The position numbers and the translations under genes are program-made. From a virus (taxonomy: Duplodnaviria > Caudoviricetes), in the IMG/VR virus record IMGVR_UViG_3300025732_000215, positions 1 to 27,544 of that record: a DNA stretch of 27,544 nucleotides; one strand, written 5' to 3'. Of this stretch, positions 17,401 through 23,233 are shown piece after piece. The notes below the pieces were generated by a model. The model was not told the DNA's origin. It saw nothing but the letters and a program-made list of their open reading frames with translations, and ran no database searches. Position 1 is the first letter of the stretch; every line of letters starts with the position of its first letter.

Positions 17401-20400
17401 TTGCGGATCGTTTACAGTTACCTTACCAATCAGACTTGGCAATGCATATGATCTAGATGCATTTGGATCCGAATTTGAATTATCTTTATTAAGTTGTGGA
17501 TAAAGATTTTCAATTGGTTGAGAAAAATACTCTTGAGTAAATGGAGTTACTGTTGGAGCATTCGAATGATTGACTAAAGTTAGATAATAGATACCATCCT
17601 GAACACCAGAAATGTATGATTGAATTTCTTGTGATTTATAAACTTGATATGTTTTATTATATTTCTTTCTTCCAAAATAAGGGAGGTTCCCATCTCTTGT
17701 AGATGTATCATTTGCAAATAATCCTGGATTTGAATTTAAAGAATATTTAAATTCTTTTAGACTTGGAATTGATGTTACAGTATATGTACCATTGTATCCT
17801 GTTGGATTTACATTTACAATCTCAACTTGATCTCCGGTTTTTAATCCATGAGGAAGTTCAGTTCTAATTGTTACCGCATTAGAACTCCAAGATGCACTTG
17901 CAATGAACTTTGGATTTCTTAATTGTCCTAAACCAGTAATTGCTCCAGAGTCGCTGTAAAGTTGGGAAATTTCGGTTGCACCTGTACCAACAATATTATT
18001 TGATTCTTGTAGAATGAATCCATCAAGAGGTGGTCTTGCTTTAACTGGAGAAGTTTTTGGAAGAACATAACGAATTCTGTATAGAGTATCAATCAAACTT
18101 CTATTATCTGGTTTTCGAGTTGCATAAGATCTGCTAGTTGCATTTCCTATACCACCAGTTCCTAAGGAATTGATTGCATTATAAATTCCATTTGATGAAG
18201 TAGAAACATTAATATACCAATTTCCAGAAAGATCCCACTGAACTGGATGTCCAATGTCTCCTGATTTTTTATCAGATACTCTACTTACAATGTTTAGTGT
18301 TCCACCTTTATTATTAATTTGTATTGCACTTCCAGTAACTCCACCATTAATTGCATCATTTAGTGACTTTGCAATGCGAATTTGATTTGTTCCAATTCCA
18401 GTTGCAGATTCTTTAGTAATTGCATAATAAATCTGATCCTGCTCTAATCCATCAGGTAAATGACCATTATCAGAGACAATACGAATTGATTCACCATTTA
18501 TAAAAGAGTGAGGTTGTGTTAATGTAAGAGTATAATCTGAAGTGTTAATACTATTGATGCCTACAGCACTTCTTCCAACAGCAAATGATTTCCGAGATGA
18601 TGATTGAGTGGAATCATAAGGACCATATGGCATTACAACTCTAGAAGAATAAGTTGTAACAGAACCACTCTGGTAAGATTGAATATTCAATATCTCATTA
18701 CTTTTTGCGCCAATAGAATATCCATCAACAATTACATTTGGTGGATTATTTTGATCTATTTGATTGTAAAGATAGAGTCTATCTGTTGTTCCTGCACCAG
18801 CAGACTTGGATGTGGTTAATCCAACATCAATAGATTCAAATTCTAGGGTAATTTCTTCTGAGTCAATTTCTTTTGGTGGAATAATATGAGTGATATATCC
18901 ATAATCATCTTGAGAAAATGCATCTTTTCTAAATCCAGAAGAAACTAATGCCTTTGCACCGAAGTTGGAGTTTGAATTATTGAGTGCAATATCGCCACCA
19001 TTTTCAGTTACAAAATGTTGGGCATAACCAATAGCAAAAACAGAAACTAACTGTAAGAAAGCATCATTGGTTGCTTTAATATGAAAGTTTTCATATTCTG
19101 GTTTAAATCTTGCTCTGGAATTAGTATGAAGATCAATAATAGACGTTGAATCTCTATAATTTCCTGAACTAGTATCGTATTTTACAAACGCATTATCATC
19201 TTTTTGTAGACCAATACCTGTGTATTGTGCAACAACCATTGACTTAAATCCTGTTGCTTTGTCACCATCAGCAAGTAATCCACACATTCCGTAAACAGAA
19301 CGTAAAGAGCAGTTGAAAATATATGGAGATGCTGAGGTTACTGTATCAACAACAAGGTTTAAAGACGAACCAGGAACAGGTGGTAGTGGATTTGTTGGTG
19401 GATTTTGTACCTGATACGTAATTCTAGTGCTACTTGGAACAGTTGCAATTACATACTGACCATCATAACCACTTGCACCAACACCGCTAATTTGAATTGG
19501 ACTATCTACACTTAATCCTTCAACTGTTTCTATTAAATCGACTGTAATTGTAGATGTAGAAGTGGCTCCATTTCCTGCACGGATACTGCTGATTCCCACA
19601 GAAGCACCTTTAGGACCTACAATACGATATTCATCAATTACTGGTTGAATATCTACAGTTCCTGCACCATAATCTGGAGAAATTTCTCTTCCAGATGAAG
19701 CACCATATGCTGCAGCAACTTTTTCATAATACATATCCAGATCAGTTCTGGTTGTAGAATACGTTAAAAAGTCGTCCTCAATTGAAACAGAGTTTACTCC
19801 ATCTGCATACTCAAAACCAGAAAGTTTGTGGTGAGAAAAATTAGGAACAAATAAATTTTCTGTATAATCCTTGTAACAATTTTCATTTGGATCTGCATCC
19901 AGAATAGTAAATTGCCAGAAATAGCACCCACCAGTAACTCTAAAAATACAAGATCTTTCTATATTATTATTTTGTGGATTTGGTACATATAATGGACGAA
20001 TCTTAGTCTTACGAAGATCCATACCAACAATTGAAGTTCCTCTTGGAACTATTACTCCACCATAAATTGAGTTAAGTTTATATAAATCGTTATCCGGAGT
20101 TGCAAGATCAAAATTAGAGTCAAGATCCCATTGAACAAAATCAGTAAGACCAGTAGCACCACTTCTTGCAGAATATGTGCCTGAAGCAGTTGGAATATAA
20201 CCGGGACGGTTATCTACAATATGATCCCCAGGATAAAGAAGAATTGTTGTTTTATTAAATCTGTCATTATTTAAACCGCGTTGATATGAAAATCTTGCCG
20301 ATTCAATCAACGCTCTTTGAAGAGTTTTAAACGGTCTTGTTAAACTATTTCCAGAATTTTCAATACTATCCGTAGAATCAAGACTATTAGGATCTACATA

Positions 20401-20519: not shown

Positions 20520-20564
20520 CTGAAGTCACACTTTTTGGGTCACTGTAACGATTTCAGTATCGTC
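20495..20564 (-). ncRNA. Candidate ~70-nt small RNA
   Basis: Bracketed by a consensus sigma70 promoter and a terminator; structured; no ORF of its own. Confidence 0.45.
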
Positions 20565-21187
20565 TTTTTTATTATACCACTTTCCTCTTTCCAAGTCAAG
20601 CGTTTCTTGAGTTCTTTATCAAAGATCATCAAATATCTGTGTTTACGACTTCTTTCTCTCCACTCACCTTCAGCACCCTTCACACTTCCCCTTGAATGCT
20701 TTGTACCATCAGCATAGTAAAAGTCTTTTTTAGGTGCTGTTAGACCGTAGTAAGTAAAATTACAATCTCTGTATATAACTCCAGAGTGGTGATTAGCATC
20801 AACGTAACTAAGAATAGCACGAACGCAGGCATCTTTTCGGAACCTCTTTATACAACGACTGACGAACCAAGAGGTAATGTTATACTCTGTTTTCTGAATA
20901 TCCGGATGAACACACAATCTTGATAGTTCATAAAGTCCTTCTTGCTCATGTCTTTGTAATCCAAATGCCCCAACTGCTATTTCTGGGACGGGGATCTTAG
21001 TAAACACACAACAAGCGAGACACCCACCCACACGGAGAACATCAGTAGAGGAAGAGGAAAATAACCCGTAATTATATCCACTTTTAAAGTCCTTTGATTC
21101 GTCTTTTAGATAGTGAAAATTGTAAAGAAGATTTTTGATTTCTTCTTTACTTACTCTATCTATAAAGTACTGAGTATTTTTACTCAT
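20540..21187 (-). CDS. Mom-like (GNAT-fold) DNA modification protein
   Basis: HYL, YELSRL, SY.D..HH.G.IYR..NF.YYG and K.RY motifs resembling Mu Mom-family proteins. Confidence 0.7.
   Translation of the reverse strand: MSKNTQYFIDRVSKEEIKNLLYNFHYLKDESKDFKSGYNYGLFSSSSTDVLRVGGCLACCVFTKIPVPEIAVGAFGLQRHEQEGLYELSRLCVHPDIQKTEYNITSWFVSRCIKRFRKDACVRAILSYVDANHHSGVIYRDCNFTYYGLTAPKKDFYYADGTKHSRGSVKGAEGEWRERSRKHRYLMIFDKELKKRLTWKEESGIIKKTILKSLQ
20571..20599 (-). promoter_or_regulatory. Sigma70-type promoter TTGACT-17-TATAAT with extended -10 TG
   Basis: -35 at 20599-20594, -10 at 20576-20571, inside the 3' end of the Mom-like gene. Confidence 0.7.
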
Positions 21188-21354
21188 TCTTGTGAGGATT
21201 TCATCATATATTCTACGGTTGTTGCAACATCATTCATTGCTGCACGAAGATCTGGTTGCTGTCCAGATTCTTGTTTAAGAATAGGTCTTGAGTCGTCGGT
21301 AAGGGTCCAACGCCATTGCTGCATTTCTTTGCAGTACCAGAGATTTATCTTCAT
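21184..21354 (-). CDS. Hypothetical protein (56 aa, below ORF track cutoff): MKINLWYCKEMQQWRWTLTDD...VEYMMKSSQE
   Basis: ATG 21354, TGA overlapping the Mom-like ATG (ATGA). Confidence 0.75.
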   Translation of the reverse strand: MKINLWYCKEMQQWRWTLTDDSRPILKQESGQQPDLRAAMNDVATTVEYMMKSSQE

Positions 21355-21387
21355 AATAATTCTATTCTTTTATCATTCTAACTTAAT

Positions 21388-21999
21388 TTAGTAACTCTGT
21401 CCAGCCGCATATCTTTCTCTTCTATAATGTCTTCCTTTACCAACATTTTTTCCTTTGTAAGTGTCAGTTTGTGAATGGCAGTTTGGACAAATAAATCTTA
21501 AATTTTCTGGTCTATTATTTTCAGAATTTCCATCTATGTGATCTATCTCCAAAACAATTGATTTTCCATTCCATTCAGTAATATGACAGCAAGAACATTT
21601 GTATCCGTAAGTTTCTGTTAAATATCTTCTAAAAAAATCTCTTGATTTTGTTGTAGAATCTCCATTTATCCAATCAGATAATCTTTGGTTAAAATGATAT
21701 GTTTTTTGACATTTAAGTGAGCAATATTTTGATGCTCCTTTCTTAACTTCATTATCACAGACTAAACAATTTTTTTCTTTTTTTCTTTTAGTGTTAAAAA
21801 ATTTAGCAGAACAAGAACTACTGCAAAATTTATTTTCGTTTTTTCTTTCGTATAATATTCCTTTATTACAGTTTAAACATAATTTAGGATTTTTATAGTA
21901 TTCTTCTTTAATTTTTTTAAATTTTTCTTTTGTTGTTAAACCACCTCTTTGTCCAGCATCAATAATACGCTGGAAACCTTCCTCTGTCCAGTTAGGCAT
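21388..21999 (-). CDS. HNH endonuclease (putative homing endonuclease) with two N-terminal CxxC...(F/Y)CSxxC zinc modules
   Basis: CSCC...LEIDHIDG...NRPENLRFICPNCHSQT. Confidence 0.9.
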   Translation of the reverse strand: MPNWTEEGFQRIIDAGQRGGLTTKEKFKKIKEEYYKNPKLCLNCNKGILYERKNENKFCSSSCSAKFFNTKRKKEKNCLVCDNEVKKGASKYCSLKCQKTYHFNQRLSDWINGDSTTKSRDFFRRYLTETYGYKCSCCHITEWNGKSIVLEIDHIDGNSENNRPENLRFICPNCHSQTDTYKGKNVGKGRHYRRERYAAGQSY

Positions 22000-22025
22000 A
22001 GTTCTACTCTAGATGTCTGCATTTC

Positions 22026-22033
22026 TATTTATA
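22026..22033 (-). promoter_or_regulatory. T4-type late promoter TATAAATA for the 203-aa HNH
   Basis: Exact match, 26 nt upstream of the ATG. Confidence 0.8.
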
Positions 22034-22035
22034 TT

Positions 22036-22059
22036 GAAAAGGAGGGACTTCCACCCTCC
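22036..22059 (-). terminator. Intrinsic terminator upstream of the HNH late promoter
   Basis: GGAGGG-UGGAAGU-CCCUCC-UUUU. Confidence 0.7.
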
Positions 22060-22087
22060 ACCTGAAGTTTGCAGACATCCAGGTGAT
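22036..22087 (-). ncRNA. Candidate ~50-nt antisense small RNA against the HNH leader
   Basis: CTAAATA at 22096-22090; hairpin CACCUGGA/UUCAGGUG; terminator; 13-nt complementarity to 22009-22021. Confidence 0.5.
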
Positions 22088-22099
22088 ATTATTTAGTTA

Positions 22100-22171
22100 A
22101 GCCGAAGACAGGGATCAAACCTGCGACCTGAAATTTACAAAATTCCTGCTCTATCACTGAGCTACTTCGGC
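22100..22171 (-). tRNA. tRNA-Thr (UGU), CCA not encoded
   Basis: GCCGAAG-TA-GCTC-AGTGATA-GAGC-A-GGAAT-TT[TGT]AA-ATTTC-AGGTC-GCAGG-TTTGATC-CCTGT-CTTCGGC-T cloverleaf. Confidence 0.9.
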
Positions 22172-22172
22172 A

Positions 22173-22442
22173 TTAATCCGCAGGCATCATTTCTGGATTT
22201 TCCAGTTCAACTTCAAATAACATTGGATGACACTCTTCATCAATCAAATAGAATGATGATTTGTATAAATCCTCTGGTTCAAAGCGTCTTTCGTTGTCTG
22301 CTAGTTCTATGAGTTCCAAATCATACATAAGACTATCTGGAACATCATCAAAAGTAAAAGGAATATTTTGGATAAAATACATCAGAACAAGTTGTGTTCC
22401 TCTGTTGTACCAAACATATCTGGCATCTATTCTGTATTTCAT
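22173..22442 (-). CDS. Hypothetical protein (89 aa, acidic)
   Basis: AGGA SD; ATAAATA at 22468-22474 upstream; stop 1 nt before the tRNA. Confidence 0.8.
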   Translation of the reverse strand: MKYRIDARYVWYNRGTQLVLMYFIQNIPFTFDDVPDSLMYDLELIELADNERRFEPEDLYKSSFYLIDEECHPMLFEVELENPEMMPAD

Positions 22443-22466
22443 AGAATAGTTCCTAATACTTTTGTT

Positions 22467-22940
22467 TTATTTATTTCTACCTCTATAGGTAGAAGTTTGT
22501 GCGTGGCAGTTTGGACATAATAAACGGAGATTTTCTAAACGATTATCGTAATTAATTCCGTTTATATGGTCTAATTCAATTGGAGTAGGTTGTCCTCTCC
22601 ATTCTGTTATACCACAACACTCACACCGATGAATTTTGATTCCTTCAGATATAAGTCTCAATTTAAGTTTGTGTGATTGAATAGGAACTCCATTTAAATA
22701 TTCTTCTAATGATCTTTTTGGTCCAAATTTTTTATTTTTGTTCCATACTTTAGGATCAGTAAAATGATCTATAGAAATATTCAGTTCTTTTGCTCTTTTA
22801 TGAAAACATTGATAATTTCCACCTGCTGCTTTTAGATTTAATTTAATCAGTGCTTCCCTAATAGAATTAGAGGTCTTTACTGCGTCAACAAATTCAGCAT
22901 CAGAAGATTTATATCCGTTTCTTAGCATTTTAGAAGACAT
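22467..22940 (-). CDS. HNH endonuclease (putative homing endonuclease) with helical N-terminal domain
   Basis: CECC...IELDHING...NRLENLRLLCPNCHAQT. Confidence 0.9.
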   Translation of the reverse strand: MSSKMLRNGYKSSDAEFVDAVKTSNSIREALIKLNLKAAGGNYQCFHKRAKELNISIDHFTDPKVWNKNKKFGPKRSLEEYLNGVPIQSHKLKLRLISEGIKIHRCECCGITEWRGQPTPIELDHINGINYDNRLENLRLLCPNCHAQTSTYRGRNK

Positions 22941-22971
22941 AACTACATTTATTTATACTTATGTCTTCTAA
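22930..22971 (-). promoter_or_regulatory. Start-codon-sequestering 13-bp hairpin with late promoter TATAAATA (22950-22957) in the loop
   Basis: ttagaagacataa (22930-22942) / ttatgtcttctaa (22959-22971) perfect inverted repeat covering the ATG at 22940. Confidence 0.85.
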
Positions 22972-23045
22972 TAGCGGAGATGGGATTCGAACCCATACTG
23001 TACGAATTTTAAGTTCGGTGCCTCCTTCCCTTGGGCTACTCCGCC
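22972..23045 (-). tRNA. tRNA-Leu (UAA), short variable region, no intron, CCA not encoded
   Basis: GGCGGAG-TA-GCC...GGC-A-CCGAA-CT[TAA]AA-TTCGT-ACAGT-ATGGG-TTCGAAT-CCCAT-CTCCGCT-A. Confidence 0.88.
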
Positions 23046-23053
23046 ATAAAAAC

Positions 23054-23233
23054 TCAAAGAGTATTGAGTTGACTATCAGATTCTACCGCATAAGTCGGAG
23101 GATGTAAAGTGCAGTATTCATTAAACGTAATCTTCATTTCTTTGTTCGTAAGATTGCAGTTTGCTGCTGCTTTTGGAAGGTTCCAGCGAGCTGCAAACAG
23201 CATTTCCATTGATTCTCTTGTTTCTGGACGCAT
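23054..23233 (-). CDS. Hypothetical protein (59 aa from MRPETRESMEMLF)
   Basis: ATG at 23233 avoids overlap with the upstream gene; HTH-like WNLPKAAANCNLT. Confidence 0.7.
   Translation of the reverse strand: MRPETRESMEMLFAARWNLPKAAANCNLTNKEMKITFNEYCTLHPPTYAVESDSQLNTL

Follow-up and report, generated by a model that had tools for sequence, protein, structure and literature searches.

The passages of the T4 reviews on homing endonucleases describe RNA-level control as consisting of cis hairpins, terminators, and RNase E. In T4 I-TevI, I-TevII, I-TevIII, segB, and gene e, and in Aeh1 mobE, long transcripts carry an upstream arm that base-pairs with the initiation region, and a TATAAATA promoter separates the two (PMC2988022, PMC3014915, PMC2677866); the passages on these T-even locks describe no separate RNA. 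In IS10, as set out in the passages cited, the hairpin loop of RNA-OUT starts pairing with the unstructured 5' end of RNA-IN and blocks ribosome binding; RNA-OUT comes from the opposite strand, and its 35 nt are complementary by construction (PMC4737173, PMC5006887). A non-coding RNA is also linked to a homing endonuclease in a cyanophage: CfrI of S-PM2 (psbA / F-CphI), described in the relevant passages as an antisense RNA of ~225 nt (PMC2984593, PMC12197685).

The 100-base stretch described here is one copy of a predicted portable control unit that stands before many unrelated selfish nuclease genes of T4-like cyanophages. The cassette is built on the T4 late-promoter lock and would function most like IS10 antisense control, though from the same strand. 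The window, meaning the whole stretch of 27,544 nt that was analysed, is inferred from gene content and a match to Synechococcus phage S-SRM01 to be a fragment of a T4-like cyanophage. Along its minus strand, the genes run in the order tRNA-Leu, 157-aa HNH, 89-aa ORF, tRNA-Thr, cassette, 203-aa HNH, 56-aa ORF, and Mom-family gene. The features of the locus are listed below; the element coordinates given in a preliminary description of this DNA are all correct on the minus strand.

22100..22171, minus strand: tRNA-Thr(UGU); the cassette-plus-nuclease insertion starts directly 3' of it.
22090..22096, minus strand: P1, a T4-type late-promoter core, CTAAATA, with a start predicted at A22084 from the T4 P23 spacing.
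22037..22084, minus strand: predicted small RNA of 48 nt (hairpin 1, terminator hairpin, and U4), from folding and a covariance-model match.
22060..22084, minus strand: hairpin 1; the antisense arm occupies the loop and the 5' strand (22085-22059 in the preliminary description).
22070..22082, minus strand: the antisense arm, or guide, its 3' part within the predicted open loop.
22037..22059, minus strand: intrinsic-terminator-like hairpin and U tract (stem 22059-22041, U4 at 22040-22037).
22026..22033, minus strand: P2, late-promoter core TATAAATA, with a start predicted at G22020.
22009..22021, minus strand: guide-complementary leader segment and predicted 5' end of the nuclease mRNA.
22000..22011, minus strand: purine-rich stretch before the ATG, conserved in the alignment; a putative ribosome-binding region that the helix end overlaps.
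21388..21999, minus strand: free-standing 203-aa HNH endonuclease with Cys-rich repeats, activity predicted (Pfam HNH_3 1.9e-06; PHROG HNH families).

The guide (22082-22070) is complementary to 22021-22009 over 13 bp with one G.U pair, and this target starts at the 5th base after the P2 core and ends 9 nt before the ATG (21999), both as first described. The RNA had been expected to span 22087-22036; a discrete upstream unit is indeed kept, but its predicted limits are 22084-22037. G22059 is claimed by both hairpins, a conflict that disappears if the RNA starts at A22084, as predicted. Within the 11-nt loop of hairpin 1 two further pairs are predicted, leaving 6 bases open. By itself, the 55-nt upstream unit folds into two hairpins (-19.3 kcal/mol, z -2.4, 4/200 shuffles), and the 110-nt read-through RNA forms a long arm-leader helix (-32.2 kcal/mol, z -3.7, 0/200 shuffles as good). 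The opposite strand of the cassette folds less well. Covariance model R1, built with an identical copy included, matches 22036-22086 at 60.3 bits. The U tract in the window is U4 only. In the window, the two promoter words occur about as often as chance would give (5 and 9 times, with 2.9 and 6.5 expected), and their significance comes from conservation across copies, not from window counts.

The cassette and the nuclease form one insertion. The empty-allele survey used the 56-aa gene downstream, taking the best 80 of its 560 loci, and tRNA-Thr lies upstream in 73 of the 80; 69 of these 73 lack both the cassette and the space for a nuclease, three have the cassette and a long gap, and one has another insert. 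The cassette is missing from nuclease-free alleles and therefore arrives together with the nuclease. Its insertion brings a predicted terminator, the single terminator-like site within 21300-23100, into a gene run otherwise without one at that point; that this is the terminator of tRNA-Thr itself was ruled out by its absence from empty alleles. The 203-aa protein has the H-N-H motif residues, at residues 151-182. Downstream of its gene lies the Mom-family gene (20540-21187, minus strand; PF25680, 1.1e-17), whose expression may depend on read-through from P2. Distant relatives of the 203-aa HNH in contigs L004, L008, L009, L010, and L012 also adjoin tRNA-Thr(UGU) genes with no cassette upstream, and this adjacency suggests a tRNA-linked target site.

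Copies of the cassette are numerous. Pattern scans of IMG/VR, each with a different part left free, found 61, at least 120, and 88 loci, which pool to at least 72 distinct close cassettes with at least 32 guides. Among the pooled matches listed, the arm-leader helix measures 8-15 bp in 69/72 and starts at the 5th base after the P2 core in 59. With the promoters left free, TAAATA was found 5-6 nt before hairpin 1 in all 43 distinct hits (43/43) and the second core in 39/43; with the second loop free as well, there were 107 hits, of which 43 carried both cores, one the first core only, and 63 no core at all. With hairpin 1 left free, P1 and hairpin 1 occurred together in 43/63 hits, neither occurred in 20, and one was never found alone. 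The near-invariance of hairpin 1 in this close set is partly a product of the search patterns. Weaker copies in whole records were found with a covariance model, and divergent copies were sought among 1182 cores in 8 phage records with a descriptor that joins promoter cores, a hairpin-terminator test, and complementarity. The descriptor returned 34 rows, or 31 cassettes after removal of 3 duplicate upstream cores, many of them divergent; seven are in cultured S-SRM01 and eight in record G003. On the S-SRM01 sequence NC_070963.1, the P1 cores stand at 17955, 48435, 51249, 55961, 62408, 77561, and 192423. A helix of at least 10 bp was found in 32/78 tandem core pairs vs 63/4000 random pairs. In the divergent copies, both hairpin 1 and the terminator are present but built from other sequences, hence structure is kept, not sequence. 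Promoter core, hairpin, and terminator, the parts of the upstream unit as first read, are thus all retained across copies.

Phage B3 carries a copy as well. The two-promoter pattern matched 0/5 of Syn9, S-PM2, P-SSM2, S-SM2, and T4, an absence of little weight because the same pattern finds only 4/7 of the S-SRM01 copies and misses that of B3. A scan with Rfam 15 at gathering score matched nothing but tRNAs, both in the window and in 13 loci that carry other copies, the best match at the cassette stretch having an E of 0.88; the preliminary description, too, recognised no named RNA family for it. Several simpler readings of the parts were tried and set aside. The cassette loop resembles the tRNA-Cys anticodon loop, and UGRAAGU a T-loop. 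A degenerate tRNA or special T-loop RNA was rejected because the guide varies freely, divergent copies have other terminator loops, and plain terminators elsewhere share this loop. Such terminators, with a UGAAAGU loop and flanking runs of A and of T, lie in the unrelated phage contigs L205, L206, L210, L217, L220, L226, L228, L233, L259, and L280. The AGGAGG...GTG mini-frame of the terminator was rejected because divergent copies have lost it. P1 as a by-product of a stop codon would fit at most 22/69 copies, P1 being no upstream stop codon in 47/69.

Variants of the cassette were also seen. A single-hairpin form has one long terminator-like stem-loop with the antisense arm in the loop, followed by P2 and a nuclease gene (L336:18160-18265, which is S-SRM01 77561; L350:9170-9255; L385:14470-14565, minus strand), and its P1 core is canonical in 1/3 copies. 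At L037:1469-1571, guide and leader are mismatched at the 5' end, possibly through recombination, and at L027:1501-1554 the upstream unit is intact while P2 and the leader have decayed.

The guide and the leader change together, which was the check named at the outset: loop and leader co-vary while staying complementary. For 31 guides, with guide and leader anchored independently, 214/217 variable-core cells are paired vs 129.9 +/- 6.9 after shuffling (0/10000), and G.U cells number 31 vs 8 A.C cells on the gene's strand. In a 53-row alignment, which takes in one orphan and some register-shifted rows, the guide-leader helix is 90% paired, all slid controls reaching at most 58%, and two-sided changes number 117 vs 36.0 +/- 4.5 shuffled. 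The shuffles ignore relatedness, so a spanning tree of 22 distinct cores was used as a rough correction; along it, 28 changes are two-sided compensations, 8 are one-sided and neutral, and 8 break the pairing. Between the window and the copy at L003 there are three two-sided changes and zero breaks.

As for specificity, duplex means are -23.7 kcal/mol for cognate vs -10.8 kcal/mol for non-cognate pairs, and 41/52 guides prefer their own leader. Computed net binding is -12 kcal/mol in the window and ranges over the 52 pairs from -7.8 to -21.1. When all late-core leaders of a record are compared, the guide pairs best with the adjacent one in 27/29 cases, and the other 2 tie with a copy that has an identical guide; this gives no support to repression of late transcripts in general, one reading of the suggestion made at the outset. 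No signal of selection for orthogonal guides within a genome was detected (mean -8.4 both within and between genomes), and no leader lacking its own arm but matching a distant arm was found.

The genes behind the cassette belong to several families. Among 65 downstream ORFs of at least 40 aa, 46 were scanned, with matches to NUMOD3, I-HmuI-like, HNH, and GIY-YIG families and 9 without a Pfam family; by PHROGs, 9 of 11 proteins encoded with the cassette belong to HNH, homing-endonuclease, or Endo VII families. In the 8 records, the cassette stands at 30/46 nuclease-like ORFs, a figure biased by the use of cassette-borne queries. The guide of the window is found before four different N-termini, and a single guide stands before as many as five different nuclease N-termini. 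The antisense-RNA/HNH cassette of the preliminary description is real as a cassette, but it stands before HNH, GIY-YIG, and Endo VII-like nucleases and not HNH alone. Short ORFs with NUMOD3 only also follow the cassette (L149:767-1090, L197:385-645, L104), with no catalytic domain detected; these are possibly degenerate nucleases or DNA-binding proteins.

This diversity bears on the idea that the nuclease binds the RNA, which would then be either its guide or a type III-like antitoxin. Type III toxin-antitoxin loci combine tandem RNA repeats with a toxin of the ToxN/CptN/TenpN family, and their order of promoter, RNA, terminator, and toxic gene resembles that of the cassette. In the window, the unit is single, not repeated, and the downstream products in the copies are HNH, GIY-YIG, NUMOD3, or Endo VII families or have no match. 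One such unit, in some cases with an identical guide, stands before these unrelated nuclease families, so that the earlier proposal of binding by the HNH protein is not supported, and the variable part matches its own leader, G.U pairs included. We regard nuclease binding as extremely improbable.

Arm and target are always adjacent in intact copies, in an order that permits a cis helix, and that helix is the minimum-energy fold of read-through RNA, so covariation alone cannot tell cis from trans. One reading stays entirely in cis. The terminator would insulate the gene, read-through RNA would fold the arm onto the leader, and P2 would bypass the arm late in infection, the P1 RNA being a by-product. 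Besides the fold and the adjacency, a plain form of such a lock is present at the neighbouring 157-aa HNH gene, behind tRNA-Leu (22930-22971, minus strand; 13-bp stem, z -6.9), where TATAAATA lies in the loop at 22957-22950 and the stem covers the ATG at 22940. The mechanism itself is established for T4 I-TevI, segB, and Aeh1 mobE in the passages on these genes (PMC2988022, PMC3014915). The cassette resembles these T-even locks in two ways: in read-through RNA the initiation region is paired to the upstream arm, as judged from the minimum-energy fold and covariation, and a putative TATAAATA promoter, here P2, whose core is present in 39/43 hits, lies between arm and target. It differs from them in that its helix stops 9 nt before the AUG and covers part of the putative ribosome-binding region, its target beginning at the predicted +1 with the AUG excluded, and in that its arm has a promoter core, a competing hairpin, and a terminator of its own, an arrangement that a simple stem-loop does not describe.

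The geometry at the predicted starts bears on the choice between cis and trans. We take the G that follows the core of T4 P23 to be +1. In the passage on this promoter, five bases and then G follow TATAAATA (PMC7892883). In the cassettes, position 5 is T after P1 in 29/31 and after P2 in 25/30 (129/381 at other cores), and position 6 is G in 16/31 and 25/30, respectively (58/381 at other cores). Hairpin 1 starts at position 5-7 after P1 in 49/53. In 43 of the 52 pairs left once the weak pair at L037 is dropped, the guide helix starts at the 5th or 6th position after P2. Positions 1-4 after P2 are paired in 59/208 cells, below the shuffled 72.0 +/- 4.6. The pairing thus ends at the predicted mRNA start; a cis stem could run on past this point, whereas an mRNA that begins there has no further bases to offer. 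Folding predicts that the five guide bases opposite positions 5-9 after the core are open (0.88-1.0) and that the distal bases are closed.

Four observations are left unexplained by a hairpin acting only in cis and favour the trans reading. First, P1 is kept in 43/43 promoter-free hits and has no role in a cis lock. Second, hairpin 1 competes with the lock, yet it has been rebuilt in several sequences. Third, the helix stops at the predicted +1, which would not be expected of a cis lock. Fourth, the guide bases facing that +1 lie in the predicted open loop. We therefore consider a purely cis lock doubtful. A further cis reading is a timing switch, in which read-through from P1 would fold hairpin 1 first, allow a brief period of translation, and then refold into the stable helix. 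Both of the mutually exclusive pairings of one strand are conserved, as a switch would have it, and short U tracts would permit the read-through; against this, the terminator and second core between arm and leader (39/43) would be counter-productive, and the pairing stop at the predicted P2 start is unexplained. We rate this switch as improbable.

The reading that we favour, and think probable, is that the small RNA, in the manner of IS10 RNA-OUT, pairs in trans with the 5' end of the mRNA, and that the same arm locks read-through RNA in cis. In this model, a separate 48-nt late RNA from the cassette is likely, and it would damp nuclease translation. Late RNA polymerase would start at P1 and stop at the terminator; P2 would give the nuclease mRNA, whose 5' end is the target. 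The free 5' end would pair with the loop and displace the 3' strand of hairpin 1, and the resulting 13-bp helix, ending 9 nt before the AUG, would hinder 30S loading. Transcripts that pass the terminator would form the same helix in cis and also be silent, as in T4. The trans step needs two molecules, so repression would rise with genome copy number, and nuclease output would be capped while P2 goes on transcribing the downstream genes; the model depends on this dosage argument, since RNA and mRNA would come from promoters of one temporal class. The preliminary description had proposed a transcription unit of its own that could repress in trans. Layout and covariation support the core of that proposal, and a discrete RNA and its action in trans are predictions from sequence.

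The duplex at the mRNA 5' end could also have the opposite effect, with the small RNA keeping ribonucleases away from the 5' end and so stabilising or activating the mRNA. It caps the predicted 5' end, and antisense protection in cyanophage infection is reported in the passage cited (PMC3113571). Among the matches listed, however, the helix ends 6-12 nt before the AUG in 67/72 copies, reaching the purine-rich stretch, and the free leader has little structure to open. Such an activating role seems to us very improbable.

Set beside the known systems, the proposed repressor would share with IS10 an open loop facing the extreme 5' end of an mRNA, if the predicted ends and folds are right. It differs in lying upstream on the same strand with a pairing of ~8-15 bp; the opposite-strand, fully complementary arrangement of RNA-OUT is absent (G.U polarity 31 vs 8), and because the pairing is not complementary by construction it must stay matched by covariation. 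In type I toxin-antitoxin systems, a toxic protein is neutralised by a base-pairing RNA. The cassette is similar in that its small RNA is predicted, from covariation, to pair with the mRNA of a harmful protein, and different in that the protein is a homing-type nuclease of 180-400 aa and the genes stand in tandem on one strand. CfrI, as the passages on it present the RNA, shares the link to a cyanophage homing endonuclease gene and differs as an opposite-strand RNA of ~225 nt, the cassette being a predicted 48-nt same-strand unit behind a tRNA; the cassette pattern had no match in S-PM2. In the literature searched, we found no prior description of the cassette, although the motif may be present in the supplementary material of PMC5737381 and PMC10690425. 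A term search of the text available for PMC8557907, the S-SRM01 paper, and for 10.64898/2026.09.22.753630 gave no mention. DNAVirus_5667, which the passage in PMC10690425 gives as 72 nt, with 56 freshwater sequences and NUMOD3 genes downstream, may be the same motif.

Some upstream units stand alone. These orphans represent three deletion types with different breakpoints, at L032, L055/L071, and L322, in which P2, target, and nuclease are gone; the loci observed are L032/L034/L044, L055/L059/L071, and L322. The gene ahead of the orphan in L055/L059/L071 looks to us like one for a small heat-shock protein. For the L322 guide, the best of the 77 late-core leaders in its record is the leader of another cassette (-19.4). 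An orphan unit is identical at 56/56 bases vs 340/388 upstream, and the U tract is shortened in two of the three types. Orphans were rejected as proof of selection in trans because recent homing with co-conversion explains the identity equally well and because of those shortened U tracts; shared ancestry or co-conversion could account for both the L322 pairing and the identity, which makes the orphans a lead and not proof. A bolder idea, to which we give a small chance, is that unrelated cyanophage homing endonucleases share an interchangeable library of guides and leaders acting in trans between co-infecting phages, so that a matching guide, orphans included, silences the nuclease of an invader as a form of RNA-based immunity. 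If true, a phage with a matching guide would resist homing by the nuclease of the invader.

As judged by sequence comparison, the cassette is real and widespread in this phage group. Its natural guides, at least 32 in number, would be a ready set of compact regulator pairs. A same-strand small RNA, carried as a 100-base module and swapped among nuclease families, would add a dosage-sensitive layer to the control of homing endonucleases, and the cassette would show a route from a cis hairpin to a trans regulator. The seven copies in S-SRM01 carry different guides, and the cassette would help to account for the presence of seven or more tolerated nucleases in a single phage.
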